A stretch of DNA of 64,000 bases from a bacterium (GTDB lineage: Bacteria > SZUA-182 > SZUA-191 > JAJRXT01): positions 45,329-109,328 of the forward strand of contig JAJRXT010000100.1 of assembly GCA_024276125.1 (NCBI GenBank). The letters run 5' to 3'. A program made the position numbers and the translations under genes. Shown one piece after another: positions 34,528-57,559 of the stretch. The notes beneath the pieces are model-generated. The model had not been told where the DNA came from. It did not search any database and saw nothing but the letters and a program-made list of their open reading frames with translations. Position 1 is the stretch's first letter; each line of letters starts with the position of its first letter.

Positions 34528-35103
34528 ATGGAAAAACAATTTACAGAGGTGCGCTGGCACGGCAGAGGGGGGCAAGGGGCGGTTACTGCGGCTAAAGTGC
34601 TGGCTGAAACGGCGTTATCCAGCGGAAAATATGTCCAGGCATTCCCCGAATACGGCCCTGAACGTATGGGCGCCCCTTTAAGGGCTTATAACCGCTTAAG
34701 CGACACGCCCATATCTATTCACTGTCAGGTAACCAATCCTGATGTAGTGGTAGTAGTAGATCCCACAATGATCGGTACGGTAGATGTGACAGACGGCACA
34801 GGTAACAATACCTTGTTTGTTATTAATACAAACGAAAACGCCGGACAGGTAAAAGAAAAATTGGGATTGGATAAACAAAAGCTCTACACAGTAAACGCCA
34901 CTAAAATAGCCTTGGAAACCATAAAACGTCCCATACCCAATACGCCGCTTTTGGGGGCATTGGCTAAAGTATCCGGTCTTATTAATATTGATGATCTGCT
35001 GGCTGATCTGGAAAAAAACTTCAGCAAAAAATTCACTGAACAAATAGTTACGGCCAATCTTAATGCCGTAAAAAGAGCATATGAGGAGGTAGCCGGAGAA
35101 TGA
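34528..35103 (+). CDS. porG: 2-oxoacid:ferredoxin oxidoreductase gamma subunit
   Basis: 191 aa. RWHGRGGQGAVTAAKVLA motif. AAGGAG RBS upstream. Confidence 0.85.
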   Translation: MEKQFTEVRWHGRGGQGAVTAAKVLAETALSSGKYVQAFPEYGPERMGAPLRAYNRLSDTPISIHCQVTNPDVVVVVDPTMIGTVDVTDGTGNNTLFVINTNENAGQVKEKLGLDKQKLYTVNATKIALETIKRPIPNTPLLGALAKVSGLINIDDLLADLEKNFSKKFTEQIVTANLNAVKRAYEEVAGE

Positions 35104-35405
35104 GCGTACAAAAAAAAGGCTGGCGCGATCTGCCCACCGGAGGGCTGATCCTGGAAGCCGGTAGTTCGCATACGTATAAAACTGGCGGCTGGCGCACATA
35201 TAGACCGGTACACAATCCGCAAAAATGTATAAACTGTCTGGCATGCTGGATTTATTGTCCTGATTCGTCTGTTATTGTAACAGACGGTAAATTTGTTGGT
35301 TTTGATCTAGACCACTGCAAGGGTTGCGGAGTATGCGCCTATGAGTGTCCCAAAAAAGTCAGGGCGATTACCATGACAGAAGAAGCAGAAGAAGCGAAAG
35401 ATTAA
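35100..35405 (+). CDS. porD: 2-oxoacid:ferredoxin oxidoreductase delta subunit (2x[4Fe-4S])
   Basis: 101 aa. CINCLACWIYCP and CKGCGVCAYECP motifs. 4-nt overlap with porG. Confidence 0.85.
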   Translation: MSVQKKGWRDLPTGGLILEAGSSHTYKTGGWRTYRPVHNPQKCINCLACWIYCPDSSVIVTDGKFVGFDLDHCKGCGVCAYECPKKVRAITMTEEAEEAKD

Positions 35406-35463
35406 TCGGTCAACTTGCACTAACAAGCAAATTTTACGTAACATGTTTTAATAATTTATTTAC

Positions 35464-35529
35464 TGTCACCCTGAGTGAAGCGAAGGGTCTGCTTGCGTAG
35501 GTTGAAAGATTCTTCGCTTCAGAATGACA
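35464..35529 (-). repeat. Family-A degenerate short copy 17
   Basis: TGTCACCCTGAGTGAAGCGAAGGGTCT...AGATTCTTCGCTTCAGAATGACA. Confidence 0.7.
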
Positions 35530-35546
35530 AATATAAATAACCTAAT

Positions 35547-35572
35547 GTTGTCGGCTTGAGACAAACCGAAAC
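35547..35572. repeat. Family-B hairpin, single
   Basis: GTTGTCGGCTTGAGACAAACCGAAAC. Confidence 0.75.
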
Positions 35573-35701
35573 ATCGATTGTTTTGACATTTGGATTTTAG
35601 ATTTCATTTGTCAAAAGGATTTTAGTATTTAGTCTTGGAGCCTTTTGGGTATCCAAAAACTATTTTACATAATATAAGTTAACAAAAGGCTATTTAAAAC
35701 T

Positions 35702-36106
35702 ATGAGCGTAGACGAAAAAATATGGTGGATTCAGGCAAGTAAGGATGACTGGGCTGCATATGTAGTATTGAAGGAAAAAGAGAATTACGCCTTGGCTGCT
35801 TTTCACTTGCAGCAGGCGGGAGAAAAAATATTAAAGGCTGTATGTATAGATAACAGCAGACCTGCCTTTACTCACAGTTGCGTTGCCTTATGTCACAAAA
35901 TAAAGGCAATGCAAATCGAAATTCCCGAAGATGTGATCTCTGCCGCCCGCAGGTTAGACCCGCATTATATCTTAGCGCGGTATCCCAATGGATTGGGCGG
36001 CAGCCCGCGGGATTATTATGATGTATCTATGTTGGAGGGAATTGAACAATGTGCGCAGAAAGTGATGAGCTTTGCGGAGTCCCGGCTGTCCAAACGGAAT
36101 GGATAG
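35702..36106 (+). CDS. HEPN domain protein
   Basis: 134 aa. AAFHLQQAGEKILKA and RYP motif region typical of HEPN. Overlaps the downstream MNT. Confidence 0.75.
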   Translation: MSVDEKIWWIQASKDDWAAYVVLKEKENYALAAFHLQQAGEKILKAVCIDNSRPAFTHSCVALCHKIKAMQIEIPEDVISAARRLDPHYILARYPNGLGGSPRDYYDVSMLEGIEQCAQKVMSFAESRLSKRNG

Positions 36107-36390
36107 ACAGCTTAGTGTCTAAGCTGCAACAGGTTATCAATTTAAACGAGCTGATATTATTTGGCTCCCGCGCCAGGGGTGAACATATAACCTGTAGCGA
36201 TTATGATATTTGTGTGGTATCGGATGATTTTACCGGAGTAAAACTGGATGAACGCATGGAGCTGGTACTTAAAATGTGGTCAGGGCAACGGGCGCTGGAG
36301 CCATTATGCTATACAAAAGATGAATTCGCCCAAATAGAAGATACACTTATCGGACAGGTAATCAGGCAGGGAAAAAGGCTTTATATTTAA
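36049..36390 (+). CDS. nucleotidyltransferase (MNT)
   Basis: LFGSRARGEHITCSDYDICVV motif. Confidence 0.75.
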   Translation: MCAESDELCGVPAVQTEWIDSLVSKLQQVINLNELILFGSRARGEHITCSDYDICVVSDDFTGVKLDERMELVLKMWSGQRALEPLCYTKDEFAQIEDTLIGQVIRQGKRLYI

Positions 36391-36728
36391 TCATACTATA
36401 AAATTTTATATAAAAGCAAACCAGGGTTTAGCAAAACAATTGAGGACACAGAAGGAAGACTAACCCATAAATTAAGCAGCGGCTGAATGAGTAAGGTATT
36501 AATAATATGCAGGCTCCAAATAAACGCTGTAAAAAAAACAGCATTACCGCATCTCCTGCACCATGCGCCCAGAGGATTTTGACTTTTCATAAGACGTTTC
36601 CTTATAATAAAAATAATTAATCTAAGGCTTTTTTAGATAATCCTAAACAAGTAAACTTAATATTCACATCTTGTGCAAAGCGTATACCAACCTAAATAAA
36701 ATGATATTTTCAACCGTTATTAATTGTG

Positions 36729-36759
36729 AGTTAACAGTTGGTTAACTTGTTTTTTTTTG
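36729..36759 (+). terminator. putative intrinsic terminator
   Basis: AGTTAAC-AGTTG-GTTAACT stem-loop followed by a T-rich tract (T9). The AT-rich stem makes it weak. Confidence 0.35.
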
Positions 36760-36907
36760 TTGTTTTTGCAAGAACAATCTACCTGCGAGCTGTTGTTTTA
36801 AATATGGTATAGGCGCCAGATTTTTTCCTTTTTATGGCAATGATGTACCACATAAAAAAATAACTCGCTGGATTATACCGGCTGTAACAATATGTACAAT
36901 TTTTATT

Positions 36908-37321
36908 TTGTGCGCCTGCTCTCAGTCTATTGAAGATTTTCGCAGACAAAACATACAAAGGTATTCCCCGCTATATAACGTCAAAAAGTATAATCCGACC
37001 AGAGTTCGTAAGGTTAAGGGTATTGTTATCAAAATAGGAAAAAACGGCGGAGCGGCTATTGGAACAAGAAATTTTCCCGGTATGTTGATGCTGAAGATAA
37101 TAAGCGAAGATAAAAAAGAATATGAAGTGGAATTGGGTCCTGATCTTTTTATTATGACGCGCCATGCCAGCTTTAAAGCGGGGCAGGAAGTGGTAATTAT
37201 TGGCGATGTAGATGAGTTTGACGCTTACATTATCGCAGAACGGATTTACAGAAAAAATAGCGCTATAATCCTAAGAGACCCTACGGGCAAACCATTGTGG
37301 ACATCTTTATATATACGGTAA
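36908..37321 (+). CDS. hypothetical lipoprotein, paralog of 37498-38118 (start uncertain)
   Basis: In-frame upstream codons encode a signal-peptide-like KKITRWIIPAVTICTIFILCAC but no start codon. ATG ATG at 36840-36845 is one frame off across an A7 run. Confidence 0.5.
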   Translation: MCACSQSIEDFRRQNIQRYSPLYNVKKYNPTRVRKVKGIVIKIGKNGGAAIGTRNFPGMLMLKIISEDKKEYEVELGPDLFIMTRHASFKAGQEVVIIGDVDEFDAYIIAERIYRKNSAIILRDPTGKPLWTSLYIR

Positions 37322-37358
37322 GTACAGCATGAACTTAGCGCAGGCGGTGCGGATTACT

Positions 37359-37430
37359 GTAGATGCCACCTTTAGGTCGACCGTCAGTGTCGGCTTAAGC
37401 AGGGGTTTACGGCTTATCGTAAGCCCGTGA
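37359..37430. repeat. Family-C doublet, degenerate
   Basis: GTAGATGCCACCTTTAGGTCGACCGTC... followed by GGGGTTTACGGCTTATCGTAAGCCC. Confidence 0.5.
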
Positions 37431-37497
37431 TTCGGCAATGCTGTTGAGTTAAGGATTTTAGTGAGTAAAAAAGTAAGGTGAAGGTAAGGTAAGGTAG

Positions 37498-38118
37498 ATG
37501 AAAACAAGAGTAGTTCTAGGAAGTTTTCTTATCTTGGCGGGTATAAGTGTTTTTGGACTTCCTGCCTGTAAGAAAAAACCCTTTACCCCGGGTTATAATC
37601 CACCGGAATCCCTGTTTACCGAATATGACCCAAAAAAGGAAATTACCTTTACCGGAGAGATTGTACAAAAAGTAGGGCTAATGCGCAATACGCAAATTCC
37701 CAGCACAACTATTCAGGTCAGGGCTGATGACGGGCGGGAATATTTAGTAGCGTTGGGACCTGATTGGTATTTATCTATGATGGGATATAAATTTTTACCG
37801 GGTGTAAAGATAGAAGTAACCGGCGCAGTTTATATGAAAGAGATGCAGGAGATGGCGCCTGATGGTATGGATTCTGAGGATATGTTTGATGAAGAAACCC
37901 CTAATGATTTGCTCAAGATTATACTGGCCAGAAAGATTAAAAAAACAAATAAAGCCATAAAATTAAGAGATAAAACAGGCAGGCCTATGTGGTATAAAAA
38001 AGGCAGGGCTATAGGGCAGAGAATCTATTTGGAAAAGATTATTAAAGAAAAAAAAGAAGAGCAGGAAAAATTAAAACAAAATGAGCAGGAAAAGGAAAAA
38101 TATCTTTTCAGCCAATAA
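37498..38118 (+). CDS. hypothetical lipoprotein with Lys/Glu-rich tail
   Basis: 206 aa. Lipobox GLPAC. Shares the LGPD..., (I/V)xGxV and LRDxTGxPxW blocks with the upstream paralog. Confidence 0.65.
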   Translation: MKTRVVLGSFLILAGISVFGLPACKKKPFTPGYNPPESLFTEYDPKKEITFTGEIVQKVGLMRNTQIPSTTIQVRADDGREYLVALGPDWYLSMMGYKFLPGVKIEVTGAVYMKEMQEMAPDGMDSEDMFDEETPNDLLKIILARKIKKTNKAIKLRDKTGRPMWYKKGRAIGQRIYLEKIIKEKKEEQEKLKQNEQEKEKYLFSQ

Positions 38119-38164
38119 AATGTGTTAAAAAATTAATATACTTGACCCAATAAGGAGAAAAACT

Positions 38165-38416
38165 ATGGCTAAAGTGGTAGCTATGACCGGTAATATTGCA
38201 GCAGCTAATGCCATGCGTCAGATTAATCCCGATGTATGCGCCGCCTATCCTATCACCCCTTCCACTGAGATAATGCAGCAGTTTGCCAGCTTTGTGGCCG
38301 ACGGCGAGGTAAATACGGAATTAGTGGCAGTAGAAAGCGAGCATAGCGCAATGAGCGCATGTATCGGCGCGGCTGCCGCAGGCGGACGTGTAATGACCGC
38401 AACTTCTGCTAATTGA
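38165..38416 (+). CDS. porA: 2-oxoacid:ferredoxin oxidoreductase alpha subunit, N-terminal part (in-frame TGA)
   Basis: MAKVVAMTGNIAAANAMRQINPDVCAAYPITPSTEIMQ...MTATSAN, then TGA at 38414-38416. Confidence 0.85.
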   Translation: MAKVVAMTGNIAAANAMRQINPDVCAAYPITPSTEIMQQFASFVADGEVNTELVAVESEHSAMSACIGAAAAGGRVMTATSAN

Positions 38417-39346
38417 CTGGCGCTGATGTGGGAAAGGTTATATATTGCTTCCGGCAACAGACTGCCGATTATCATGACTACCGTAAACCGCGCGCTGTCT
38501 GCGCCGATTAATATACACTGCGATCACAGCGATGCTATGGGGGCGCGTGATGCCGGCTGGATTCAGCTTTATTCGGAAAATGCGCAGGAAGCCTATGACA
38601 ATCTTATTCAGGCGGTGCGTATTGCAGAGCATCGGGATGTGCGCCTGCCGGTTATGGTGTGTATGGACGGCTTTATCATCAGCCATTCTATAGAGCGTAT
38701 GGAAATGTTAGACGATATGCCGGTACGCAATTTTATAGGTCCGTTTAAAGCCAATTATCCGCTGTTGGATATAAACAATCCTGTAACCTATGGTCCTATT
38801 GACTTACAGGATTATTATATTGAACATAAACGCCAGCAGGCTGAAGCCATGAAACTTGCGGGACCGGTTATTTTGGAGATTGGTAAAGAATTCGGTGAGA
38901 CCTTCGGCAGGAGTTATGGTTTTTTTGAAGGTTATATGTTAGATGATGCCGAATTGGTGATAGTGGGCTTAGGTTCTTCTACCGGCACGGTTCGTTCGGT
39001 AGTGGATGAATTAAGAGCAAAGGGCATTGCTGCCGGTTTATTGAAATTACGCACCTTCCGTCCGTTTCCGGCTCATGAAATAGCCGCTGCTATTGGAGGC
39101 GCCAAAGCTGTTGCCGTATTGGATCGCTCCGACTCCTTCGGGGCATACGGCGGACCGCTTTTTTCCGAGGTACGCTCTGCTTTATTCGGTAAAAATGACG
39201 CCCCGCCGGTAGTGGATTATATATACGGCTTAGGCGGGCGTGATTTTGGTATAGCCGATGTACACGGTATCTTCGATGACCTACAAGATATTGTACAAAA
39301 CGGCGCACCGGAAGATGAGGTACAGTATATTACCGTAAGGGAGTAA
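38417..39346 (+). CDS. porA: 2-oxoacid:ferredoxin oxidoreductase alpha subunit, C-terminal part
   Basis: Same frame. LALMWERLYIASGNRLPIIMTTVNRALSAPINIHCDHSD continues the conserved alpha-subunit motif directly after the TGA. Confidence 0.85.
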   Translation: MALMWERLYIASGNRLPIIMTTVNRALSAPINIHCDHSDAMGARDAGWIQLYSENAQEAYDNLIQAVRIAEHRDVRLPVMVCMDGFIISHSIERMEMLDDMPVRNFIGPFKANYPLLDINNPVTYGPIDLQDYYIEHKRQQAEAMKLAGPVILEIGKEFGETFGRSYGFFEGYMLDDAELVIVGLGSSTGTVRSVVDELRAKGIAAGLLKLRTFRPFPAHEIAAAIGGAKAVAVLDRSDSFGAYGGPLFSEVRSALFGKNDAPPVVDYIYGLGGRDFGIADVHGIFDDLQDIVQNGAPEDEVQYITVRE

Positions 39347-39348
39347 AT

Positions 39349-39603
39349 ATGGATAAGACAATCTGCTTTACTGCTGAATTCCTAAAAGACGGGCGCTTTT
39401 CCGTTCCCCAAAAGATTATAAACAACCTATGTCTTAAAACAGGGGAAAAAGTGAAGCTAATTATAGAAAAAAAGCGATTTGATTAGGAAAATTTTTTAAC
39501 ACTTTTTGGTATCTGGCATAACAAAAATGCAAAAGAAATCAATCTTTATCGGAATATCATAAAATAAAGAAAGAATTTCGGCAGAAAAGAGGTCAGGCTT
39601 TGA
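39349..39603 (+). pseudogene. vapB: AbrB/SpoVT-type VapB antitoxin with two in-frame stops
   Basis: MDKTICFTAEFLKDGRFSVPQKIINNLCLKTGEKVKLIIEKK. TAG at 39484-39486 and TAA at 39565-39567. The frame ends in TGA overlapping the vapC TTG (TTGA). Confidence 0.55.
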
Positions 39604-40004
39604 TATACTGTCTGGATACTGATATTTTAATTGAGTATTTCCGGGGAAATAATGTAGTAAAAAACAAGATAGAATCCCTTTCCGAACACGATAATATAGG
39701 TATCACTTGGTTTTCTTTTTATGAATTTTTCAAAGGTATATTTATTAGTGGAAAATTAGAGGAAGAAAGCTTTTTAAATGCTTTGCTTGATTATACTGTT
39801 ATACTTGAAGCTTCTTATTACTCAAGTAAAATCGGCGGAGATATTTATGCTGCTTTTTAAAAAAAAAGGGGGCAATTAATCAATGACGCCGATATCTTAA
39901 TTGCCAGTATTGTAAAAAGCTATCAGGCTATTTTAGTTACCAACAATGAAAAACATTTCTCCAGAATAGATGATTTGCAAATTAAAAATTGGTTAAAAGA
40001 CTAA
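39600..40004 (+). pseudogene. vapC: PIN-domain VapC toxin with an in-frame TAA
   Basis: (M)IYCLDTDILIEY...AAF, TAA at 39858-39860, then KKRGQLINDADILIASIV...VTNNEKHFSRI in the same frame. Confidence 0.65.
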
Positions 40005-40071
40005 GAATTTGTCTCAAAGACGGCGCACCCGAAAACGAGCTACAGTATATTACCGTAAGGGAATAAAAATT

Positions 40072-40308
40072 ATGCAATCTATAGACTCACATAAAATTAT
40101 TTCAGAACTGAAAAGTCTCTCCGATAACCAAAAAAGTCAAGTCTATGAGTTCATAGAATTTATTAAATATAAGCATATCAGAAATAAAGCAACAGCAAAA
40201 CAGATAATTGAAGAGACATATGGTTTTACCAAGGGTTCTAAGCTTACTTCAGAAATATTCGCTAAAATGAAAAATGGAGAAATTGCCTTGGAGAATCATG
40301 GTGAATAA
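40072..40308 (+). CDS. small antitoxin (DUF2281-like)
   Basis: MQSIDSHKIISELKSLSDNQKSQVYEFIEFIKYK. The stop overlaps the downstream PIN gene start (ATGGTGAATAA). Confidence 0.55.
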   Translation: MQSIDSHKIISELKSLSDNQKSQVYEFIEFIKYKHIRNKATAKQIIEETYGFTKGSKLTSEIFAKMKNGEIALENHGE

Positions 40309-40708
40309 AAGCTTCATTTTGGATGCTTGTAGTATTATTGCATTTTTGAATGCAGAAAAAGGTGGGGAAAAACTTAAAACTCTGTTGGAAAATAATCATT
40401 GCCAACATTACATGCACATGATTAACCTCTGCGAAACCTACTATGGTTTTTACAAAAAGGACGGTAAAAGACATGCAGAGGAAATATTGCAAAAGCTTTT
40501 GTTATTACCCATTGAATATATAGAAGATATCTCCCTTGATTTTATAAAAGCAGTTGGTAAGTACAAGGCTGCCTACAAAATTTCATTAGCTGATGCTTTT
40601 GTGCTCGCTTTAGCCGAAATAAAGAAGGCAGCAGTGGTTACTACAGATCACAAGGAATTTGACCCAGTATCTTATGAGGGAAAAATAGAGTTTTTGTGGT
40701 TAAGATAG
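40298..40708 (+). CDS. vapC: PIN-domain toxin (VapC family)
   Basis: MVNKSFILDACSIIAFL...SLADAFVLALAE...VVTTDHKEF acidic PIN motifs. Confidence 0.7.
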   Translation: MVNKSFILDACSIIAFLNAEKGGEKLKTLLENNHCQHYMHMINLCETYYGFYKKDGKRHAEEILQKLLLLPIEYIEDISLDFIKAVGKYKAAYKISLADAFVLALAEIKKAAVVTTDHKEFDPVSYEGKIEFLWLR

Positions 40709-40760
40709 GTAGTAACCTAAGATAAAATTCCTGAAGTACGTAAAAAACAAGGTTTCTGTT

Positions 40761-41147
40761 ATGGAAATATCTTCTTGGTTAAATAGCAGAAAGAAAATCT
40801 CTTTTGAAAACAAAGAAATCGTTGAAAGATGGTTGTGTTCGCTTAAAAATTATATTCCCAAGCCAGCAGGAGCGCAAAGATCATGTTGCAGAGAGTTATA
40901 TGCTTTAACGAAATATTTAAACGCTGGTTTAAAAAATAATCTGCTTGATTTTCCATTTTGCATTGCTAAAAAGGAATGTCCAGATTTTATTATTGAACTA
41001 AGTGACAAAACGACAATAGGTTTGGAACACACAGAAGCTACAACCGAAAACCTCAAACAAACACTTGCAAAGTGGAGAAAACAACCAAAAGAAGCTTATG
41101 CTATGGAAACTAGCGCAAATGAGAGTCACTTAGTGCCTTCTGGATAA
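40761..41147 (+). CDS. hypothetical, possible PD-(D/E)xK nuclease-fold protein, N-terminal part (in-frame TAA)
   Basis: CPDFIIELSDKTTIGLEHTEA resembles a D...E.K-type nuclease core. TAA at 41145-41147. Confidence 0.4.
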   Translation: MEISSWLNSRKKISFENKEIVERWLCSLKNYIPKPAGAQRSCCRELYALTKYLNAGLKNNLLDFPFCIAKKECPDFIIELSDKTTIGLEHTEATTENLKQTLAKWRKQPKEAYAMETSANESHLVPSG

Positions 41148-41495
41148 GAATTAACTGGCAAAGGTTTTGTTGGAGAAGAACCTGAACAATTATGGGTTAG
41201 GAAGATATTATCAGTGATTAATGACAAAATTAATACTATAAATAAAGGGCATTATATAAAATGCAGTTACTACGATTTGTTAATATATTCAAATGTACCT
41301 TTGCAAAATGAGATTGTTACTGACGAAGGCTCTCCTGGTCCTGAAAAACTAATTAAGCAATCTTTAATACCAGAACTTAGCAAACACACAAATATTTTTC
41401 GCATAATAAATATAATCTTTGAAAAGTATAATAAAATATTAGCGTTAGAAAAAAACAAGAATCATGTCAAGCTTAAGGTTTACGAGATAGATTAA
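41148..41495 (+). CDS. C-terminal continuation of 40761-41147
   Basis: Same frame and open from the TAA through to 41495. AT-rich like the N-terminal part. Confidence 0.4.
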   Translation, partial: ELTGKGFVGEEPEQLWVRKILSVINDKINTINKGHYIKCSYYDLLIYSNVPLQNEIVTDEGSPGPEKLIKQSLIPELSKHTNIFRIINIIFEKYNKILALEKNKNHVKLKVYEID

Positions 41496-41511
41496 TTGTA
41501 AATGAATAACA

Positions 41512-41850
41512 ATGCTAAAACCAAAAGAAAAAACAGCTCTTGCCAAATTTAAGGCTGAGATTATAAAAAAACTGCCTGAATATATCATCTTGCTGGAATT
41601 ATTTGGCTCCAAAGCACGCGGAGATGATACAAATGATTCTGATATTGATATACTTGTGTTAACTGAGGGAAAAGATTTTGAAAAAAATTCTGAAATATGC
41701 GGTACGGCCTTAGATTTTTCTATTGATTATGATACCTATATATCGCCTAGAATATTTGAACTTAAAGAATTTGAGCGTCTAAAACAACGTAATTCTATCT
41801 TTATAAAGAATGTGGAAAAAGATGGGAAGATACTATGGCAGAAGAATTAA
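41512..41850 (+). CDS. nucleotidyltransferase (MNT)
   Basis: LFGSKARGDDTNDSDIDILVL motif. Confidence 0.75.
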   Translation: MLKPKEKTALAKFKAEIIKKLPEYIILLELFGSKARGDDTNDSDIDILVLTEGKDFEKNSEICGTALDFSIDYDTYISPRIFELKEFERLKQRNSIFIKNVEKDGKILWQKN

Positions 41851-42233
41851 AGCAGGAAATACAAAAAAGATTAAAGCTGGCCAGAGAAAAGTTGGAAGTA
41901 GCCCAAGCTTTATATGAGAAAGGGTACTATGCCGACTCCATATCCAGAGTTTACTATGCTATGTATCATGCCGCCCGTGCGGTGCTTTTTATAAAAAACG
42001 TCGCTCCAATAAAGCATTCAGGGGTAATCAAGATGTTTGGCCTGCATTATATCAAACCTGGAATAATAGAAAGGGTTTATAGTAAGTCCCTGTCTTATTT
42101 AAAGGAACTAAGGGAAAATGCTGACTATGAAGGTGAAACAGAGTTTACTCAGGCGGAATGTCTGGATGCTTTGAATCGGGGAAAAAAATTCGTAAAAATA
42201 ACCGAGGAGATTATAAATAAAGAGTTTTCGTAA
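41835..42233 (+). CDS. HEPN domain protein
   Basis: 132 aa. SRVYYAMYHAARAVL and RENADY motifs. Overlaps the MNT by 16 nt. Confidence 0.75.
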   Translation: MAEELKQEIQKRLKLAREKLEVAQALYEKGYYADSISRVYYAMYHAARAVLFIKNVAPIKHSGVIKMFGLHYIKPGIIERVYSKSLSYLKELRENADYEGETEFTQAECLDALNRGKKFVKITEEIINKEFS

Positions 42234-42271
42234 CCAGTTTATTATTATATTTTTGAGATAAAGGAGACATT

Positions 42272-43291
42272 ATGCCAGCACAAGCAAGTATTCCATTAAA
42301 ATTAAAGGAGTTATCCAATAAGCGGGATTTGCTGGCCGGAGGACACAGAATGTGCGCCGGCTGTATCGCTCCCACTGCTGTACGCCAGATTCTGCTGGCT
42401 GCCGAGCATCCGGTAGTAGCAACTAATGCCACCGGCTGCCTAGAGGTATCCACCAGTATATATCCCTATAGCTCATGGCGTATACCTTGGATGCACAGCG
42501 CATTTGAGAATTCGGCGGCTACGGCGGCCGGTATTGAGGCCATGTATGATTCCCTAAAACAGCAGGGTAAAATTCCAGCAGATAAACGCATTGACTTTAT
42601 CGCTCTCGGCGGAGACGGCGGTACTTATGATATCGGTCTGCAAGCCCTGTCAGGCGCCTTGGAGCGCGGGCATCGCTTTTTATACGTATGCTATGATAAC
42701 GGCGCTTATATGAATACGGGTATACAGCGTTCGTCTTCCACCCCTCGCGGCGCTCATACCACCACTACTCCGGCGGGCAAGGTTATCCCCGGTAAGCAGC
42801 AGTTCCGCAAGGACTTAACTAAAATTGTAGCCGCTCATAATATACCATATCTGGCTCAGGCCTCGCCCAATAACTGGCGCGACCTTATGCAGAAAACCAG
42901 AAAGGCGCTTAATTGCGGCGGTCCGGCGTTTTTAAATGTAATGGCGCCTTGTCATCGCGGCTGGCGTTGCAAAATAGACATAGGTATTGAGCTTGCGCGT
43001 GATTCCGTATCTACTTGTTTCTGGCCGTTATATGAAATTGAAAACGGAATACTTAAATTAAACGGAGAGACCAAACAACTGGCTGATTTAAAGAAAAAGG
43101 CGGACGCCGGCGATGAAGCTGCCAAAACCAAGTATGGCCAGAAGAAAAAACCGCTGACCGGCTGGTTGAAGCAGCAGGGCAGGTTTGCTCATTTATTTAA
43201 ACCGGCTAATGAATACGTTTTAAATGAACTAGTTGGGCGGGTAGAAAATGATTGGAATAATTTAGTCGAAAAAGACGGTAAATTATTTTAG
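42272..43291 (+). CDS. porB: 2-oxoacid:ferredoxin oxidoreductase beta subunit (TPP-binding)
   Basis: 339 aa. CAGC...GCLE cluster ligands and the GGDGGTYDIGLQALSGA TPP motif. Confidence 0.85.
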   Translation: MPAQASIPLKLKELSNKRDLLAGGHRMCAGCIAPTAVRQILLAAEHPVVATNATGCLEVSTSIYPYSSWRIPWMHSAFENSAATAAGIEAMYDSLKQQGKIPADKRIDFIALGGDGGTYDIGLQALSGALERGHRFLYVCYDNGAYMNTGIQRSSSTPRGAHTTTTPAGKVIPGKQQFRKDLTKIVAAHNIPYLAQASPNNWRDLMQKTRKALNCGGPAFLNVMAPCHRGWRCKIDIGIELARDSVSTCFWPLYEIENGILKLNGETKQLADLKKKADAGDEAAKTKYGQKKKPLTGWLKQQGRFAHLFKPANEYVLNELVGRVENDWNNLVEKDGKLF

Positions 43292-45027: not shown

Positions 45028-45318
45028 ATGCCCATGGCAAAACTCATAGAGGAAAAAAAAGAAGAAATATTGCGTATAGCCAAACAGCACGGCGCGCATA
45101 ATGTACGGATATTTGGCTCTTTTGCCCGGGGCGAGCAGACAAAGGACAGTGATGTAGATTTTTTGGTAGATATGGAACCCGGACGAAGCTTGTTTGACTT
45201 GGGTGAATTATTGATGGATTTGCAAGAATTGCTGGGACGAAAGGTGGATGTATTAACAAGAGATTCCATATATTGGCTGCTTCGACGCCGGATACTAAAG
45301 GAGGCGGTACCATTATGA
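45028..45318 (+). CDS. mntA: MntA-type nucleotidyltransferase antitoxin
   Basis: [21 protein letters not shown] motif. ATGA overlap with hepT. Confidence 0.75.
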
Positions 45319-45689
45319 AAGACCCCCGTGTTTATCTGGCGCATATCTTGGAACGCATTGAGCGTATTCAAAGCTACACGAGAAAAGGACAGGAAGCATT
45401 TCTGTCCGATCCTTTGATTCAAGATGCGGTTATGCGTAATCTGGAGATCATTGGCGAGGCCGCCCGGCAGGTTAGTAAGGAATATCGCCAAACCTACCCT
45501 GAGATTCCCTGGCGGGGCATGATGGCTCTGCGTAATGTGCTTATCCATAATTATGAAGGGGTGGATATAAGTAAGGTCTGGTTAGTGGTAGAAAAAGAAC
45601 TTCCTCCTCTAAGAGCTGTTTTGGAAAAGGTCTTGCCCCCTTTATCACAACTGGAGTCCGAATTGGCAAAAGAAAAGGGGGAAGAGTGA
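45315..45689 (+). CDS. hepT: HepT-type HEPN toxin (DUF86)
   Basis: Start MKDPRVYL at 45315. R-x4-H motif (LRNVLIHNY). Confidence 0.8.
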
Positions 45690-48856: not shown

Positions 48857-49420
48857 ATGGACGATACCCTGAAACTAAACCGGCTGGACGGCAAGTTTGT
48901 CAAAGAGGTAGAGCGCCTGGCCGGACAAAAATTAAACGACTGCTATCAATGCGGCAAATGTACAGCCGGCTGTCCCATTGCAGCTTCGGTGGAATACCCC
49001 CCCCATAGGGTCATGCGTATGGCGCAATTGGGTTTAAAACAGCGCGTACTGTACTGTCCTACCATCTGGCTTTGCTTGTCCTGTGTCACCTGTACCGCCC
49101 GTTGTCCCAAAGGCGTAGACTTAACCAGCGTTATGAATGCACTGCGAGAGCTGGCCATAAAAGAAGGCATAAGCCATGCTCAACATTCAAAAATAAAATT
49201 ATTTGAAAAATTATTTCTGCATTCAATTAAAGCCCACGGGCGATTATACGAAATGGGTACATTAGCTCGTTTTAATTTACTTACCTTCCAACCCTTTCAA
49301 GATGCCCAGCTTTTATTACCCTTATTGCAAAAAGGCAAACTAAGCTTTACCCCGAAAAATATACATGGCAAAAAAGAGATTGAGTACATTTTCAAAAACT
49401 CCCACGTAAAGGAATCTTAA
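48857..49420 (+). CDS. hdrC: heterodisulfide reductase subunit C-like (2x[4Fe-4S])
   Basis: 187 aa. CYQCGKCTAGCP and CLSCVTCTARCP motifs. Confidence 0.8.
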   Translation: MDDTLKLNRLDGKFVKEVERLAGQKLNDCYQCGKCTAGCPIAASVEYPPHRVMRMAQLGLKQRVLYCPTIWLCLSCVTCTARCPKGVDLTSVMNALRELAIKEGISHAQHSKIKLFEKLFLHSIKAHGRLYEMGTLARFNLLTFQPFQDAQLLLPLLQKGKLSFTPKNIHGKKEIEYIFKNSHVKES

Positions 49421-50295
49421 TGGCTAAATTGGGATACTTCCCAGGTTGTTCGCTGGAGCGCAGCGCTCATGAATACGACCAATCGAGCCGTTTGGTGTGT
49501 AAACGTCTGGGATTAGAACTACAATAAATACGCGACTGGTCATGCTGCGGAGCGCATGCCGCCCACCATACCCAGCATTTATTGGCGGAAGGTTTGAGCG
49601 CGCGCAACCTGTACAAAGCTGCAACGCAAGGCTTAAAGGAAATAATAGCTCCCTGTCCCGCCTGCTATAACCGCTTGAAATCCACCCAAACCGCGGTCAC
49701 AGAAAATCCTGAGCATAAAAAAGAATTAGCGGATAAGTTTGAGCTGGAATGGGAGGGGCAAATAAAGGTTTTCTCCCTGCTTGAATATCTGGCAAAACTA
49801 CCCCCTGATGAGATTAAAAAGTGGGTCAGGATTGATCTATCCAAGCTTAAACTCGTAGCCTATTACGGCTGCCTGCTGGTGCGTCCGCCCAAGCTGGTAC
49901 AGTTTGATAATCCCGAAGACCCAACATCTATGGATGATTTATTAACCTTAGTCGGCGCCGATATGCTCCCTTGGGACTATAAAGTGCAGTGTTGCGGGGC
50001 GGCGCTTGCCATAAGCAACCCAAAAATTCAGCATAAATTAGGCGGCGATATTTTAGAACTTGCAGCCGCCGGCGGAGCGCAAGGAATTGCAGTCGGCTGT
50101 CCCTTATGTCACGTCAATTTGGACTTAAGGCAGAAACAGATTAATGACAGCAGAAAAACCAATTTTAATTTACCGATATTCTATTTTACTCAAATACTGG
50201 GACTGGCCTTCGGCTTTAAACCCCATTACTTGGAAATAGATAAACATATGGTGGATGCAATGCCATTATTAATTAAAACAGGTATAATAAAATGA
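49420..50295 (+). CDS. hdrB: heterodisulfide reductase subunit B-like (two CCG domains), interrupted by an in-frame TAA
   Basis: ATG overlaps the hdrC stop (TAATG). MAKLGYFPGCSLERSAHEYDQSSRLVCKRLGLELQ, TAA at 49525-49527, then IRDWSCCGAHAAHH... in the same frame. Second CCG motif is KVQCCGAALA. Confidence 0.8.
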
Positions 50296-53200
50296 GAATC
50301 GGCGTATTTATTTGTCATTGCGGTAATAATATTGCCGCTACTGTAGATGTGGAAAAGGTATCCACAGCATTACTGGAATTACCCGACGTGGTTTTTAGCG
50401 CCACCATTCAATACACCTGTTCTGATGCCGGTCAAAAGCTGATTCGCAAAGTTATTAAAGATAAAAAACTGACTCAAGCGGTAGTCGCATCCTGTTCCCC
50501 GTTAGTACATGAAAATACCTTCAGGCGTACAGTCGCCAAAGCCGGATTAAATCCCTATTCCTTTGAAATGGCTAACATCAGAGAGCACTGCTCCTGGATA
50601 CATGAAGATAAGCAGCTGGCTACAAGCAAAGCTTATGAAATAGTTAAAACGGCTATATATAAAGTAGCAAAAGATGAAAAACTATATGCTTCGCGCTCGC
50701 AGGTGAATAGGCGCGCTTTGATTATCGGCGGCGGTATAACCGGTATTCAGGCGGCTTTGGATATTGCGGACGGCGGCCGCGAGGTGATATTAGTGGAGCG
50801 AGAGCCCTCTATCGGCGGTAATATGGCCAAAATGGATAAAGTCTTCCCTACGCTTGATTGTTCGGCCTGTATATTGGCGCCTAAAATGGTGGAGGTACAC
50901 CAAAAAGAAAAAGTTAAACTCTATACCTATACAGAGGTAGAAAGCGTATCTGGATATATCGGTAATTTTAAAGTTAAATTAAGGCGTAAAGCCCGTTATG
51001 TGGATGAGGCGGCCTGTACTGGCTGCGGAGAATGCAGTAAGGTCTGCCCGGTTAACTTACCCGATGAATTTAATGAAGGATTAGGGCAGCGTAAGGCGGT
51101 CTATATTCCATTTCCGCAGGCAGTACCTAAAGTGGCTACTATAGATAAGCGGGGCAAAGCCCCCTGTCGGGCGGCCTGTCCTATCGGCTCACGCACACAA
51201 GGTTATATTTCGCTGATTGCCGAAGACAGATTTGATGAGGCGCTGCAAGTTATTGCCGAGGATAATCCGTTTCCGGCTATCTGCGGGCGTATCTGCCAGC
51301 ATCCCTGCGAGGATAATTGTAAGCGCAGCGATGTGGATGAGCCATTAGCAATAGCTGCGCTTAAACGGGCGGCAGTGGATTATGCGGAAAAGCCGTATAT
51401 CAAACCCAAACCGGAAACATTAAAAGAAGAAAAAATTGCCATAATCGGCGGCGGTCCTGCGGGGCTTACCGCAGCTGAGACACTGGCCGAACAAGGCTAC
51501 AGGATAACCCTGTTTGAAGCGCAACCTGTATTAGGCGGTATGATGCGGCTGGGGATTCCGGCTTACAGGCTGCCAAGGGAGATTTTAGATAAAGAGATAC
51601 AGGCGATTATTGATCTTGGAGTAGAGGTTAAAACCAATACCAAACTGGGTAAAAATATCACCATAGACGGCTTATTTAAAGATGGTTATAAAGCTGTTTT
51701 CTTAGGCATTGGGGCACAAAAAGGACGCAGTTTAGGCATTGACGGCGAGAGTTTAAAGGGCGTATATCCGGCCTTGGATTTCCTGCGGGAGATAAATTTA
51801 GGACATAAGGTAAAGCTGGGAGATAAAGTGGCTGTTATTGGCGGCGGTAATACGGCGATTGATACGGCAAGGACTGTCTGGCGTATGGGCGCGGAAAGCG
51901 TAACCATATTATATAGACGCACCAAGCAGGAGATGCCGGCGGTAGATGCCGAAATTGAAGAAGCTGAAAAAGAGGGAATTATAATAAAATATTTGGCTGC
52001 ACCTACTAAACTTATAGGAGATGATGCCGGAAAGCTTACCCATATAGAATGTATAAAAATGGAATTAGGCGCGCCTGATGCCAGCGGACGCAGGCGGCCG
52101 ATACCGATTGACGGTTCTGAATTTATAATTGCCGCCGATACAATCCTGCCGGCTATAGGGCAGTCAGTCGATGCGGACAGTTATGAAAATTCAGATATTA
52201 AAGTAAAACGCGGCCTATTGCAGGCAGATAAGATAACTTTGGCTACCAATATTCCGGGCGTATTTGCCGGCGGCGATGTAACATCCGGTCCTGCTACGGT
52301 AACAGATGCTATTTGGGCGGGAAAGGCTGCCGCAGTCTCTATAGACCGCTATATAAAGGGAGAAGATTTAACCGAAAACAGGGATACCGATAAACTTAAG
52401 GCGCTTAAAAAAGAAGATATCAAATTAGAAAACACCCTGCCGGTTTTGCAAAGACAGCCTATATCAACCATACCGCTTAAAGACCGCAATAAAAATTTTG
52501 CTGAAGTGGAACAGGGTTTATCACGCAAGGCGGCTATTGCTGAGGCCGGACGCTGTCTGTCATGCGCCGGCTGCGGGGAATGCCGCGCCTGCGAAAAAAT
52601 ATGCGAGGCTAACTGCATAGACCATAGGGCGGCAGATAAAATAATCGAAACAGACGCAGGCGGTATTGTGGTAGCTACCGGATTCGGATTGCTTGACTGG
52701 AAAAAACCCTATGGAGAATACGGTCATGGTAAATATAAGGACGTAATAACCGCTTTACAGTATGAAAGGCTGCTGTCCGCATCAGGCCCCAAGGGCGGGC
52801 ATGTGGTGCGGCCATCTGACGGCAAAGAACCCAAGACAATAGCCTTTATCTGCTGTGTAGGCTCCAGAGAGGGAGCAAAAGTAAGGCCGTACTGTTCGGC
52901 GGTTTGCTGTATGTATACGGCTAAACAGGCTATTTTAACTAAAGAGCATATCCCCGATGCTCAGGTATTTGCTTTTAATATGGATGTTCAGATCGGCGGA
53001 AAAAATTATGCTCAGTTTATTGATCGCGCTAAAGAGACTTACGGTATAAAATACGTGCGCGGGAGGGTATCTAAGATGTTTAACAGAAACGGGCGCGTAG
53101 TCCTTCGGGCGGCTGATACACTGCTTGGTATGCCGGTGGAATTAGAGGCCGATTTAGTTGTACTGGCCGTAGGGATTGATTCTGCCCCGGGCGCTCTGGA

Positions 53201-53666
53201 TTTAGCCAAAAGGCTGAATATATCTCATGATGTATATGGATTTTTTAATGAAAGCCACCCCAAACTAAGGCCGGTGGAATCAAGTACCATGGGAATTTAT
53301 CTGGCTGGCGCCTGTCAGGGACCCAAGGATATACCCACCAGCGTGGCTCAAGCCAGCAGCGTATCCAGTAAAGTATTGGGACTGCTTAGTAAGGATTATC
53401 TGGAAACCAGCCCTATGGTGGCGGAGGTGAATATCAGACGCTGTATCGGCTGTTTCCGCTGTCAGGAAGTATGTCCGTTTAATGCTATAGAAGAGCAGAT
53501 AATGCGCGACGGCAGCAAGCTGGCCAAGGTAAATCCGGCTACCTGCCAGGGGTGCGGCCTGTGTAATGCAACCTGCCTGCCTGCGGCTGTATCGCTTAAG
53601 GGCTTTACTGATGATCAGCTTCTGCGCGAGGTGGATGCTTTGTGTAATCTGGAGCTGTCGTTGTGA
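50292..53666 (+). CDS. hdrA: HdrA-like flavoprotein with an inserted GltD/NfnB-like NAD(P)H-FAD module (HdrL type)
   Basis: 1124 aa. HdrA N-terminus (FICHCGNNIA, GGGITGIQAA), central block CRAACP...FPAICGRICQHPCE...IIGGGPAGLTAAETLA...VIGGGNTAIDTAR typical of the glutamate synthase small subunit, then an HdrA C-terminus. Confidence 0.8.
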   Translation: MRIGVFICHCGNNIAATVDVEKVSTALLELPDVVFSATIQYTCSDAGQKLIRKVIKDKKLTQAVVASCSPLVHENTFRRTVAKAGLNPYSFEMANIREHCSWIHEDKQLATSKAYEIVKTAIYKVAKDEKLYASRSQVNRRALIIGGGITGIQAALDIADGGREVILVEREPSIGGNMAKMDKVFPTLDCSACILAPKMVEVHQKEKVKLYTYTEVESVSGYIGNFKVKLRRKARYVDEAACTGCGECSKVCPVNLPDEFNEGLGQRKAVYIPFPQAVPKVATIDKRGKAPCRAACPIGSRTQGYISLIAEDRFDEALQVIAEDNPFPAICGRICQHPCEDNCKRSDVDEPLAIAALKRAAVDYAEKPYIKPKPETLKEEKIAIIGGGPAGLTAAETLAEQGYRITLFEAQPVLGGMMRLGIPAYRLPREILDKEIQAIIDLGVEVKTNTKLGKNITIDGLFKDGYKAVFLGIGAQKGRSLGIDGESLKGVYPALDFLREINLGHKVKLGDKVAVIGGGNTAIDTARTVWRMGAESVTILYRRTKQEMPAVDAEIEEAEKEGIIIKYLAAPTKLIGDDAGKLTHIECIKMELGAPDASGRRRPIPIDGSEFIIAADTILPAIGQSVDADSYENSDIKVKRGLLQADKITLATNIPGVFAGGDVTSGPATVTDAIWAGKAAAVSIDRYIKGEDLTENRDTDKLKALKKEDIKLENTLPVLQRQPISTIPLKDRNKNFAEVEQGLSRKAAIAEAGRCLSCAGCGECRACEKICEANCIDHRAADKIIETDAGGIVVATGFGLLDWKKPYGEYGHGKYKDVITALQYERLLSASGPKGGHVVRPSDGKEPKTIAFICCVGSREGAKVRPYCSAVCCMYTAKQAILTKEHIPDAQVFAFNMDVQIGGKNYAQFIDRAKETYGIKYVRGRVSKMFNRNGRVVLRAADTLLGMPVELEADLVVLAVGIDSAPGALDLAKRLNISHDVYGFFNESHPKLRPVESSTMGIYLAGACQGPKDIPTSVAQASSVSSKVLGLLSKDYLETSPMVAEVNIRRCIGCFRCQEVCPFNAIEEQIMRDGSKLAKVNPATCQGCGLCNATCLPAAVSLKGFTDDQLLREVDALCNLELSL

Positions 53667-53677
53667 TATAATATGAT

Positions 53678-53703
53678 GTTTCGGCTTGAAGACAAGCCGA
53701 AAC
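53678..53703. repeat. Family-B hairpin, single
   Basis: GTTTCGGCTTGAAGACAAGCCGAAAC, 12 nt after the hdrA stop. Confidence 0.85.
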
Positions 53704-53720
53704 ATCAAACTTAAGGTAAC

Positions 53721-53804
53721 TGTCATTCTGAACGAAGCGAAGCGCAGTGAAGAATCTACATACATATGCAAGTAGATTCTTCGGCCTACGGCTTCAGAAT
53801 GACA
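53721..53804 (-). repeat. Family-A nested palindrome, copy 19
   Basis: Termini and inner stem intact. Confidence 0.9.
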
Positions 53805-53848
53805 GGCTAAGAAAAACCTTTTTAGTACAGGGTGTTCTTAAGTCAGGT

Positions 53849-53873
53849 GTTTCGGGATGAAACATCCCGAAAC
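53849..53873. repeat. Family-B hairpin, single
   Basis: GTTTCGGGATGAAACATCCCGAAAC. Confidence 0.85.
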
Positions 53874-53943
53874 ATAAATCTTAATAAATAACTCAAGTTG
53901 CTACCTATAGGTTTATTTTTAGAAATATTTGGTTTTACATGGC

Positions 53944-54028
53944 TGTCATTCTGAACGAAGCGGAGCGCAGTGAAGAATCTCCTCCTATATAGCGAGTAGA
54001 TTCTTCGGCCTTCGGCCTCAGAATGACA
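53944..54028 (-). repeat. Family-A nested palindrome, copy 20
   Basis: Flanked by inverted CAAGTTGCTACCTATAGG / CCATAGGTAGCAACTTGG modules. Confidence 0.9.
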
Positions 54029-54089
54029 AAAATGGATAACTTCACCATAGGTAGCAACTTGGGTTAAATAACCAGGGGCTGAGCTGAAA

Positions 54090-56051: not shown

Positions 56052-56062
56052 GGAACTGTCAC

Positions 56063-56149
56063 AAAATAAGTTGAGCATTTTAACGCTAAGATTTAGCTTA
56101 GATTCAGACGATTTGATAAAAGCAAAATTATCGAATTAGCGCTACTAGT
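56063..56149. repeat. Family-F ~90-bp repeat, copy 2
   Basis: Matches 47827-47917. Starts 12 nt after the hdrA2 stop. Confidence 0.8.
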
Positions 56150-56181
56150 ACATTGTTTCAATAAAATGTATACATTTCTTT

Positions 56182-56266
56182 TGTCATTCTTAAACGAAAT
56201 GAAGTGGAGTGAAGAATCTGTCTGCGTATGCGAGTAGATTCTTCGGCTTATCGCCTCAGAATGACA
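56182..56266 (-). repeat. Family-A nested palindrome, copy 21
   Basis: Termini and inner stem intact. Confidence 0.9.
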
Positions 56267-56308
56267 GCGTATGATAAGATTTCTAGCAAAGTTTAGGAGT
56301 GCGGTTTA

Positions 56309-56536
56309 ATGGCAAAAGATATAGTATCTGATATTCCTCCTGTTCTTTTAAATCAGTTGGATAAAATGATTAAGGATGGTCTTTATAAAACCAGAGTCGA
56401 AGCCATAAGGGAAGGGATAAGACTGCTTGTCCGAAAACGTGAAGTCAAGCGTTTAAGAGAAAAAATTAAAGAGATTAAACTTAATACCAAACACCTTCCA
56501 AATCTAAGCCAAGCAGTAGTAGAACAACATATATAG
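56309..56536 (+). CDS. ribbon-helix-helix (CopG-like) protein, probable antitoxin
   Basis: 75 aa. LDKMIKDGLYKTRVEAIREGIRLLV RHH pattern. Confidence 0.6.
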   Translation: MAKDIVSDIPPVLLNQLDKMIKDGLYKTRVEAIREGIRLLVRKREVKRLREKIKEIKLNTKHLPNLSQAVVEQHI

Positions 56537-56548
56537 GAGGTGGGTTTT

Positions 56549-56743
56549 ATGCCAATTCCAGCTATACAAGGGATTTGTCATAATGGCAAGATAGAAGCAT
56601 TAGAAGATATACCATATAAGGAAGAGAAAAAAGTTTTAATCATTTTTTTGGATGATACAGAAGATAAAGCATGGGATGAAGCGGTTGCCGAAGATTTTTT
56701 GAAAGGATATTCAAAAAACGATGCAGCCTATGACAAACTATAA
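56549..56743 (+). CDS. DUF104-like small antitoxin
   Basis: MPIPAIQGICHNGKIEALEDIPYKEEKKVLIIF. AGGAGG RBS upstream. Overlaps the mazF-like start. Confidence 0.5.
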   Translation: MPIPAIQGICHNGKIEALEDIPYKEEKKVLIIFLDDTEDKAWDEAVAEDFLKGYSKNDAAYDKL

Positions 56744-57532: not shown

Positions 57533-57559
57533 TTTGGCTTTTTCAAGGAGATATAATAA

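Follow-up and report, generated by a model that had tools for sequence, protein, structure and literature searches.

A porGDAB-type oxidoreductase operon with probable long-standing landing sites for toxin-antitoxin and passenger genes on both sides of porA

We analyze a 64,000-nucleotide (nt) stretch of bacterial DNA (contig JAJRXT010000100.1, positions 45,329 to 109,328; hereafter, the window) in which the genes for the gamma, delta, alpha and beta subunits of a 2-oxoacid:acceptor oxidoreductase (porG, porD, porA and porB) are interrupted twice by toxin-antitoxin (TA) and other passenger genes. These genes probably constitute a single porGDAB-type operon of an uncultured lineage, in which the two junctions flanking porA have been long-standing landing sites for such cargo. 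The cargo would comprise two layers with different histories. An old layer, made up of a HEPN and minimal nucleotidyltransferase (MNT) pair (HEPN1-MNT1), a gene with a PDFII...IGLEHTE motif and a second such pair (MNT2-HEPN2), would have been inherited with the operon under purifying selection, and a pair of MamS-like lipoprotein genes probably belongs to it as well. A fast-turnover layer would consist of VapBC-type and other TA cassettes located directly at the porA stop codon.

The por genes lie on the plus strand in the order porG-porD (34528-35103 and 35100-35405), a gap of 2,759 nt (35406-38164), porA (38165-39346), a gap of 2,925 nt (39347-42271) and porB (42272-43291). The ORF (open reading frame) map and domain searches thereby bear out the layout proposed in an earlier sequence-only reading of this DNA (porG-porD, 2.76 kb, porA, 2.92 kb, porB), including the 4-nt overlap of the gamma and delta genes and the placement of the por genes and every cargo gene between them on the plus strand. 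The gamma subunit (191 amino acids, aa) matches Pfam POR (PF01558, E-value 1e-43) and TIGR02175 (226 bits against a cutoff of 81), and the delta subunit (101 aa), with two 4Fe-4S motifs, matches Fer4 families and TIGR02179 (100 bits against a cutoff of 60). The alpha-subunit gene spans 393 codons, carries an in-frame TGA at 38414-38416 and encodes POR_N and PFOR_II domains, and the beta subunit (339 aa) matches Pfam TPP_enzyme_C (PF02775, E-value 6e-19). NCBIfam models assign the four proteins to the pyruvate/2-ketoisovalerate family of four-subunit 2-oxoacid:acceptor oxidoreductases. The best equivalog models score below their curated cutoffs (PorA_Arch with 516 bits against 550, PorB with 338 bits against 405), so that pyruvate is not settled as the substrate; the Vor, oxalate and phenylglyoxylate models score lower than these two. 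On sequence comparison, the four genes encode subunits of one enzyme, because the nearest relatives of each subunit are found in the same genomes with a matching identity pattern and because the orthologous genes are contiguous in nearly all related loci.

To place the interruptions in context, the four window proteins were mapped by tblastn onto 160 related loci, 80 from GTDB species genomes and 80 from metagenomes (loci are designated here by L numbers and individual homologous proteins by P numbers). The comparison with orthologous loci, which the sequence-only reading had proposed, shows porGDAB to be contiguous in 156 of the 160 loci, with a gap above 250 nt between subunit genes in only four, and with median gaps of 0 nt (porG-porD), 8.5 nt (porD-porA) and -4 nt (porA-porB). 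Judged from this distribution, the intervening genes are insertions relative to an ancestral contiguous porGDAB layout. Within the clade of the window, defined by PorA identities of 80-83% and drawn from NCBI metagenome-assembled genomes (MAGs), JGI and ENA metagenomes and a Logan assembly, cargo is clade-wide: seven other contigs extend past porA, and every one of them has cargo or a spacer at that point, with porA and porB non-adjacent. The PorG and PorB products are 79-81% and 82-84% identical, respectively, to their orthologues in the clade. None of the relatives from the metagenome scan exceeded 70% PorA identity, and that scan added no further split loci.

Across nine loci, comprising the clade and its outgroup, differing cargo is found between the same flanking genes at the porA-porB junction, the porD-porA junction or both. 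After porA, L001 carries a vapB-PIN pair, a 105-nt remnant of the porA 3' end, a gene for a 170-aa membrane protein and then MNT-HEPN-porB; L002 carries an antitoxin-PIN pair different from that of L001; L163 has a 440-nt non-coding, palindrome-rich spacer; L164 has a UPF0175-DUF3368 pair, a 164-aa gene (80% identical to the 170-aa gene of L001), a ParE pair and a 57-nt MNT remnant; L165 has an unannotated small ORF of 63 aa, a TIR-like gene and a remnant in which a deletion has fused MNT and HEPN; L166 has an intact homologue of the PDFII...IGLEHTE gene, which is broken in the window; and L162 has a gene for an unrelated lipoprotein of 332 aa. Directly at the porA stop codon, each genome examined has cassettes of its own. 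Before porA, L162 harbors orthologues of HEPN1-MNT1 (locus 8338-12187: porG-porD-HEPN-MNT-porA, followed by the lipoprotein gene, with no porB within 10 kb, so that porB has moved or been lost), L166 an MNT1 orthologue followed by a DUF4258 gene, and L161 the two MamS-like genes immediately 5' of porA. For three of the window's cargo units, other clade members retain an intact orthologue at the corresponding junction. The window and L001 are collinear over MNT2, HEPN2 and porB, with 74% identical nucleotides, and MNT-HEPN persists in the form of remnants in two further members (L164 and L165). In the outgroup L005, a Candidatus Schekmanbacteria MAG with 73% PorA identity, porA and porB are separated by a decayed antitoxin/PIN pair. 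Outside the clade and this near outgroup, the only inter-subunit insertion found was in an unrelated MAG (L043), where an IS110-family transposase gene on the opposite strand (8526-9704) separates porD from porA. In L167 (PorA identity 76%), the gene directly ahead of porA-porB (4095-7569) encodes an M20 peptidase, and neither porG nor porD lies upstream.

The cargo of the porD-porA junction in the window agrees with the content given in the sequence-only reading (repeats, a HEPN/MNT pair and two paralogous lipoprotein genes), with the qualification that the first lipoprotein gene has no start codon. Just 3' of porD, a REP/MITE-like (repetitive extragenic palindromic or miniature inverted-repeat transposable) element forms a hairpin at about 35460-35535 (plus strand). 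Its arm motif, TGTCATTCTGAACGAAGCGAAG, has 18 copies in the window against 0.15 expected, at sites that include 1938, 3427, 32301, 33453, 35464, 43531, 53721 and 59857, and copies of the element are located 3' of porD, 3' of porB and on both sides of yicC. The 221-nt stretch containing the palindrome (35400-35620) folds at -58 kcal/mol (z -4.1), and L162 lacks a palindromic element after porD, the distance from porD to HEPN there being 11 nt. The next two genes are HEPN1 (35702-36106, 134 aa, Pfam HEPN E-value 3e-18), with an RRLDPH (Rx4H) motif, and MNT1 (36049-36390, 113 aa, Pfam Polbeta and NTP_transf_2). The HEPN gene comes first, which is the reverse of the usual order, and overlaps MNT1 by 58 nt; both order and overlap recur in L162 (9215-9903), where the orthologues have identical lengths, sit at the same junction and share 72% (HEPN1) and 65% (MNT1) aa identity with those of the window, the MNT1 orthologue of L166 being 60% identical. 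The GC content of HEPN1/MNT1 tracks that of the host genes both in the window (44-46%) and in L162 (53-54%).

An AT-rich spacer of about 400-500 nt separates MNT1 from the MamS-like genes and holds the best sigma-70-like promoter match of the region (36579-36608, plus strand, TTGACT-18-TATAAT, 11/12 positions), which serves as a lead only, the scan as a whole being at chance level. The first MamS_MamX-like lipoprotein gene (36794-37321) is listed as an ORF from TTG 36908, and no ATG, GTG or TTG lies upstream of its signal-peptide coding stretch; its L161 homologue (44% aa identity) has a complete N-terminus. The second (37498-38118, 206 aa), with a signal peptide and an LPAC lipobox, is its paralogue (27% identical, E-value 3e-11). 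It was classified through its homologue P0003, which is encoded directly 5' of porA in L161 and matches MamS_MamX (PF26390); NCBIfam gives a weak MamS match to the window protein itself (E-value 9e-5). Both genes diverge fast, with 44% and 56% identity between the window and L161 (22-1609) against 86% for PorA. This lipoprotein pair, found 5' of porA in two lineages, has no obvious tie to a cytoplasmic oxidoreductase.

The porA-porB junction opens with a dead vapB-like antitoxin gene (39349-39567), recognized from its translation and without a Pfam match, that starts 2 nt after the porA stop codon and is broken by a TAG at 39484. A dead PIN-family vapC toxin gene follows (39600-40005, from translation), broken by a single TAA at 39858 and 31% identical over 127 aa to the PIN protein of L001 (E-value 5e-13). 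The decayed vapBC of the sequence-only reading is thus disabled by one nonsense codon in each gene, not by frameshift. Also as in that reading, Pfam searches recover an intact antitoxin/PIN pair (40072-40708) and an MNT/HEPN pair (41512-42233) in this gap. The antitoxin gene (40072-40308, 78 aa) is weakly identified as VapB-type (Pfam DUF2281 E-value 5.5e-4; NCBIfam TA_VapB E-value 5e-6, below cutoff) and overlaps by 35 nt the gene for the 144-aa PIN-domain toxin (40274-40708, Pfam PIN E-value 1.7e-13). The nuclease-like ORF reported downstream is present, but it consists of two ORFs in the same frame, which we read as a single gene of about 244 aa (40761-41495) split by a TAA at 41145: the homologue P0001 (29% identity) and that of L166 (42-47%) span the site of the stop. 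Its product, with the PDFII...IGLEHTE motif, is possibly PD-(D/E)xK-like; an AlphaFold2 model with a mean pLDDT (predicted local distance difference test) of 50 was too poor for a fold search, and the nuclease label is a guess at the level of the motif.

The last pair before porB comprises MNT2 (41512-41850, 112 aa, Pfam Polbeta and NTP_transf_2) and HEPN2 (41835-42233, 132 aa, Pfam HEPN E-value 2e-20), which has RENADY at the Rx4H position. The pair follows the usual MNT-first order; MNT genes normally lie 5' of their HEPN genes, and HEPN proteins of the PF05168 type often lack the canonical His (Anantharaman et al. 2013, PMC3710099). The L001 orthologues of MNT2 and HEPN2 are both 78% identical to the window proteins, MNT2 remnants persist in L164 and L165, and the HEPN2 remnant of L165 is 84% identical. 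PADLOC returned only generic MNT matches to candidate systems. The cargo between porA and porB is AT-rich in all lineages (29-41% GC against 48-53% for porA and porB). Together, the two gaps in the window contain four TA pairs, of which one is dead, and not the at least five TA-type cassettes counted in the sequence-only reading; a fifth pair (45028-45689) is located after radA, outside the operon.

The age of this arrangement can be gauged from the subunits themselves. The identity pattern is alike for all four, with the window about equidistant from all clade members, L001 and L002 as the closest pair and L005 as the outgroup. Of the groupings, the clade and the L001+L002 pair alone have full bootstrap support (200/200); the concatenated tree has the window branching first in 165 of 200 bootstraps, in a concatenation that took in a mis-assigned, non-PorB sequence for L162. 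Synonymous sites have reached or approached saturation in comparisons of the window with its relatives, and the ratio of nonsynonymous to synonymous divergence (dN/dS) of the Por subunits is 0.05-0.12 wherever computable (about 0.05 for porA). Distances to the outgroup are equal for the window, L001 and L002 in porG, porA and porB, porD being somewhat faster, and there is no sign of a long-term relaxation of selection on por. The resident TA genes yield similar ratios: 0.12 for HEPN1 and 0.09 for MNT1 against L162, and 0.09 for MNT2 and 0.05 for HEPN2 against L001. These data are most simply read as pointing to a clade ancestor in which cargo already flanked porA on either side and the enzyme kept working in that state. 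Since the split and several of the cargo genes are older than the separation of lineages with saturated synonymous sites, the enzyme would have worked for a long time while split.

Two scars derived from the porA 3' end suggest how new cassettes may arrive. In the window, a 54-nt direct repeat with copies 87% identical brackets the dead vapBC: the first copy (39297-39350) is the porA 3' end with its stop codon, and the second (40017-40070) is a displaced remnant of a porA 3' end, both on the plus strand. L001 has a comparable 105-nt porA remnant (10775-10879) after its own vapBC, which is of a different family. This remnant is closer to the porA ends of L002 (87%) and L163 (85%) than to that of L001 itself (79%), and the porA identity between L001 and L002 drops toward the 3' end. 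New cassettes would therefore be proposed to enter by recombination anchored in porA, with the incoming DNA bringing its own porA end and the resident 3' end being displaced and left behind as a short direct repeat. Candidate routes include homology-facilitated illegitimate recombination, Campbell-type integration of a circular fragment and site-specific integration, and homology-anchored illegitimate recombination appears at least as likely as the site-specific route. No recombinase or mobility gene was found among the cargo or its neighbors in the window and the clade loci, no integrase was present among the neighbors identified over about 27-47 kb of the window, and neither the porB 5' end nor porD has left remnants in the cargo. 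By our own count, about 15 non-orthologous cargo units in the nine loci are all co-oriented with por, an outcome with a probability of about 2^-15 if orientation were random. This uniformity suggests either that insertions which block transcription of the operon are selected against or that the route of insertion is specific to one orientation. We regard as doubtful the bolder proposal that conserved operon genes act as the "attachment sites" of a recombinase-free exchange system, in which TA cassettes move between related genomes by recombination anchored in porA, each event supplying a fresh porA 3' end and leaving the former one as a scar, with selection for uninterrupted operon transcription imposing their orientation and with the two HEPN/MNT pairs becoming fixed over time and influencing the processing of por mRNA.

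Two further resemblances were considered and set aside. A common origin of the window and L001 vapBC cassettes was rejected: their toxins are 31% identical, while their antitoxins appear unrelated by eye and give no BLAST match, and because the two cassettes are not demonstrably orthologous, a single shared insertion event is unsupported. A 25-nt resemblance between the porD and HEPN1 starts (repeat family D2, 72%) was judged to be a chance match among 60 such families.

The expectation of the sequence-only reading, that the subunit genes must be co-transcribed through the cassettes or expressed independently around them, is a reasonable one. A search of sequencing runs yielded none with the 8.8-kb region. 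Expression of the split operon most likely proceeds through transcripts that read through the cassettes, possibly aided by cassette promoters. We favor read-through because the cargo is co-oriented, because intergenic distances from porA to porB are only 2-66 nt, and because porA and porB each have their own ribosome-binding site (AAGGAG and AAAGGAG, respectively), porB starting 38 nt after the HEPN2 stop codon. A single transcript from porA through porB would be the favored arrangement, and transcription may start separately ahead of the MamS-like genes and porA. The 296-nt spacer between porD and HEPN1 contains a hairpin without a U-tract, and Rfam models gave a tRNA-Met as their sole match over the window. 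Read-through transcription would explain how strong selection has been kept on the enzyme despite the split. The TA pairs are predicted to be active.

The sequence-only reading treated porA as a plain subunit gene and missed its in-frame TGA. This codon replaces a conserved Gly codon (GGC or GGG in L001, L002 and L005) and splits POR_N, leaving ORFs of 83 and 306 aa, so that this sequence does not encode an intact, full-length alpha subunit. The intactness of the enzyme in this organism is therefore uncertain. The TGA, a single change, may be a recent lesion or an error of the consensus. At least seven genes of the window, porA included, each have one in-frame stop codon and are otherwise well conserved. 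Beyond the por locus, the affected genes are yicC (TAA at 33038, plus strand), a gene for a hybrid kinase with response-regulator/PAS and HisKA/HATPase domains (TAG at 13692, minus strand) and an FGE-sulfatase gene (TGA at 62823, minus strand). The seven stops use all three stop codons and share no common sequence context. No frameshifts were seen in the genes examined, in which no systematic search for them was made; a pattern of stops only is odd, because mutational decay would be expected to yield frameshifts too. The pattern may reflect consensus or assembly problems, or population heterogeneity. Recoding of the porA TGA, as selenocysteine or otherwise, was rejected: the downstream fold has a z of -1.7 with no structure resembling a selenocysteine insertion sequence (SECIS), the relatives have Gly at this position, and the stops in other genes include TAA and TAG.

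Several of these observations, and some limits of the data, weigh against the view of the locus as a working operon with long-standing landing sites. With its premature stop, this copy of porA may not yield a working enzyme, and scans of the region for promoters and terminators give counts equal to those of shuffled sequence. HEPN2, as read from its translation, lacks the canonical His of the RNase motif and is perhaps inactive as a toxin. MNT2-HEPN2 is still AT-rich despite its apparent age, which could mean a later transfer between lineages, and the distribution of the MamS-like pair requires several losses or a transfer. Gains and losses were reconstructed from nine partial contigs, and the recombination mechanism is read from two scars only.

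It is unlikely that the por cluster is instead decaying and non-functional in this genome, with selfish cassettes and repeats accumulating unselected. The in-frame TGA at a conserved Gly codon of porA, the damage to vapB, vapC, the 244-aa gene and the first MamS-like gene, and the loss of porB from the L162 locus would all fit such decay. However, porG, porD and porB are intact, the Por dN/dS ratios are low with no acceleration on the window branch for porG, porA and porB, and the split, together with several cargo genes, is older than the divergence of saturated lineages. Single nonsense codons also affect the unrelated yicC, hybrid kinase and FGE-sulfatase genes, and the porA stop is therefore part of a window-wide pattern, not a signal of local decay.

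We consider it quite unlikely that the resident HEPN/MNT pairs have been domesticated, be it to process or stabilize the long mRNA, to set subunit levels separately or to guard the locus against deletion. Domestication would be in line with the retention of both pairs at the same junctions across species with dN/dS ratios of 0.05-0.12, with the host-like GC content of HEPN1/MNT1 in two lineages, with the strict co-orientation of all cargo with por and, in the case of HEPN2, with the missing RNase His, which fits a non-toxic role. Addiction by itself, however, accounts for the retention of TA genes and for purifying selection on them; the pairs are lost or reduced to remnants in L002, L163, L164 and L165, whose por genes are intact, and no feature ties them biochemically to the oxidoreductase.

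An assembly artefact, namely a chimeric metagenome contig joining por fragments to TA-rich DNA, might be suspected from the seemingly uncultured source organism, the abundant repeats and the odd in-frame stops in several genes, but it is effectively refuted by the presence of orthologous cargo at the same junctions in independent NCBI, JGI, ENA and Logan assemblies and by the collinearity of the window with L001. Equally improbable is that the four genes are parts of different enzymes brought together by chance: their physical separation, together with porAB without porGD in L167 and porGDA without porB in L162, which indicate that subunit genes can be unlinked in this group, would allow for it, but the closest relatives of each subunit occur in the same genomes with matching identity ranks, the window has no second PorA or PorB paralogue in its 64 kb, and neither the subunit phylogenies nor the 156 of 160 loci with adjacent orthologues lend support to such a pairing with other gamma/delta genes, which the sequence-only reading had named as evidence that would overturn its assignment to one enzyme.

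The TA density of the window is unusually high, at nine pairs and a lone MNT gene in 64 kb. Further MNT/HEPN or MNT/HepT pairs and the lone MNT lie at 179-998, 2908-3267 and 5555-6519 on the minus strand and at 45028-45689 on the plus strand. A MazF/PemK toxin gene with two small upstream genes (56309-57056, plus strand) is situated between hdrA (54090-56051) and an mvhD/FlpD gene (57128-57532). Here, too, a TA cassette may separate neighboring genes of a redox cluster, which would be the second such case in the window. From the TA density and this MazF-type cassette, operon-internal TA cassettes appear to recur in this genome. The surrounding heterodisulfide-reductase-like cluster (48857-59761, plus strand) encodes an HdrC-like ferredoxin, a CCG-domain protein, a 1,124-aa HdrA/GltD-like fusion, a 653-aa HdrA-like protein, MvhD and further Fe-S proteins, and points to an anaerobic lifestyle.

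The por locus does not amount to a novel type of system: its TA families, its enzyme and the occurrence of TA modules within operons are all known already. Its significance lies in a central-metabolism operon that has tolerated kilobases of selfish cargo over long evolutionary time under strong selection. At least nine related loci with different cargo at the same two junctions provide a natural series on the arrival, persistence, decay, replacement and co-orientation of TA cassettes. For annotation, the locus illustrates that operon-based methods or pathway-completeness scoring can overlook subunits whose genes are 3 kb away from each other or, in a case such as L162, at another place in the genome.

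The closest precedent is an MNT-HEPN module inserted into the operon for lysine biosynthesis of Thermus thermophilus HB8 and absent from HB27 (Makarova, Wolf and Koonin 2009, PMC2701414). As in the por locus, the same type of TA module resides there inside a conserved metabolic operon, and its presence varies between related genomes. With this precedent, and with cargo or a spacer in all seven other clade contigs, the colonization of the por operon is neither peculiar to this genome nor without precedent, although the sequence-only reading had known of no por, vor or kor operon colonized in this way. The Thermus case nevertheless involves one recent module in one strain, whereas here both porA junctions are occupied, one of them by up to five units, and the units include old ones with cross-species conservation as well as ones that turn over.

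Other systems share part of these features. Integration hotspots are regions in which conserved core-gene flanks collect variable defense and TA islands. The por junctions resemble them in their conserved flanks and in a variable cargo that is rich in TA and nuclease-type genes and AT-rich relative to those flanks; unlike them, the flanks are subunit genes of one enzyme in one operon, and the cargo has no integrase or transposase and is entirely co-oriented with its flanks. Genomic islands that integrate at the 3' end of a tRNA or tmRNA (transfer-messenger RNA) gene restore that end and leave the displaced partial copy as a direct repeat. The porA scars are similar in that a short direct repeat of the target 3' end brackets the insert (54 nt in the window, 105 nt in L001), but the target is protein-coding and the insert is a 0.7-kb TA cassette without a recombinase. 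Chromosomal integron cassette arrays can likewise carry TA cassettes, and the por cargo is comparable in consisting of co-oriented, small, promoter-poor cassettes, TA pairs among them, with high turnover. It differs in sitting inside an operon, and an integron array was rejected as an explanation, with no integrase among the neighbors and no recurring attC-like inverted repeats between cassettes. In the por/vor clusters of Pyrococcus and Thermococcus, one gamma-subunit gene serves two enzymes; these clusters also show that the genes of a four-subunit enzyme need not form one uninterrupted porGDAB unit, but their intervening genes are paralogous enzyme subunits, not selfish cassettes. Set against these systems, the locus is best described as a long-lived, co-oriented integration hotspot in a conserved operon, and as an unusually elaborate example of a known phenomenon.

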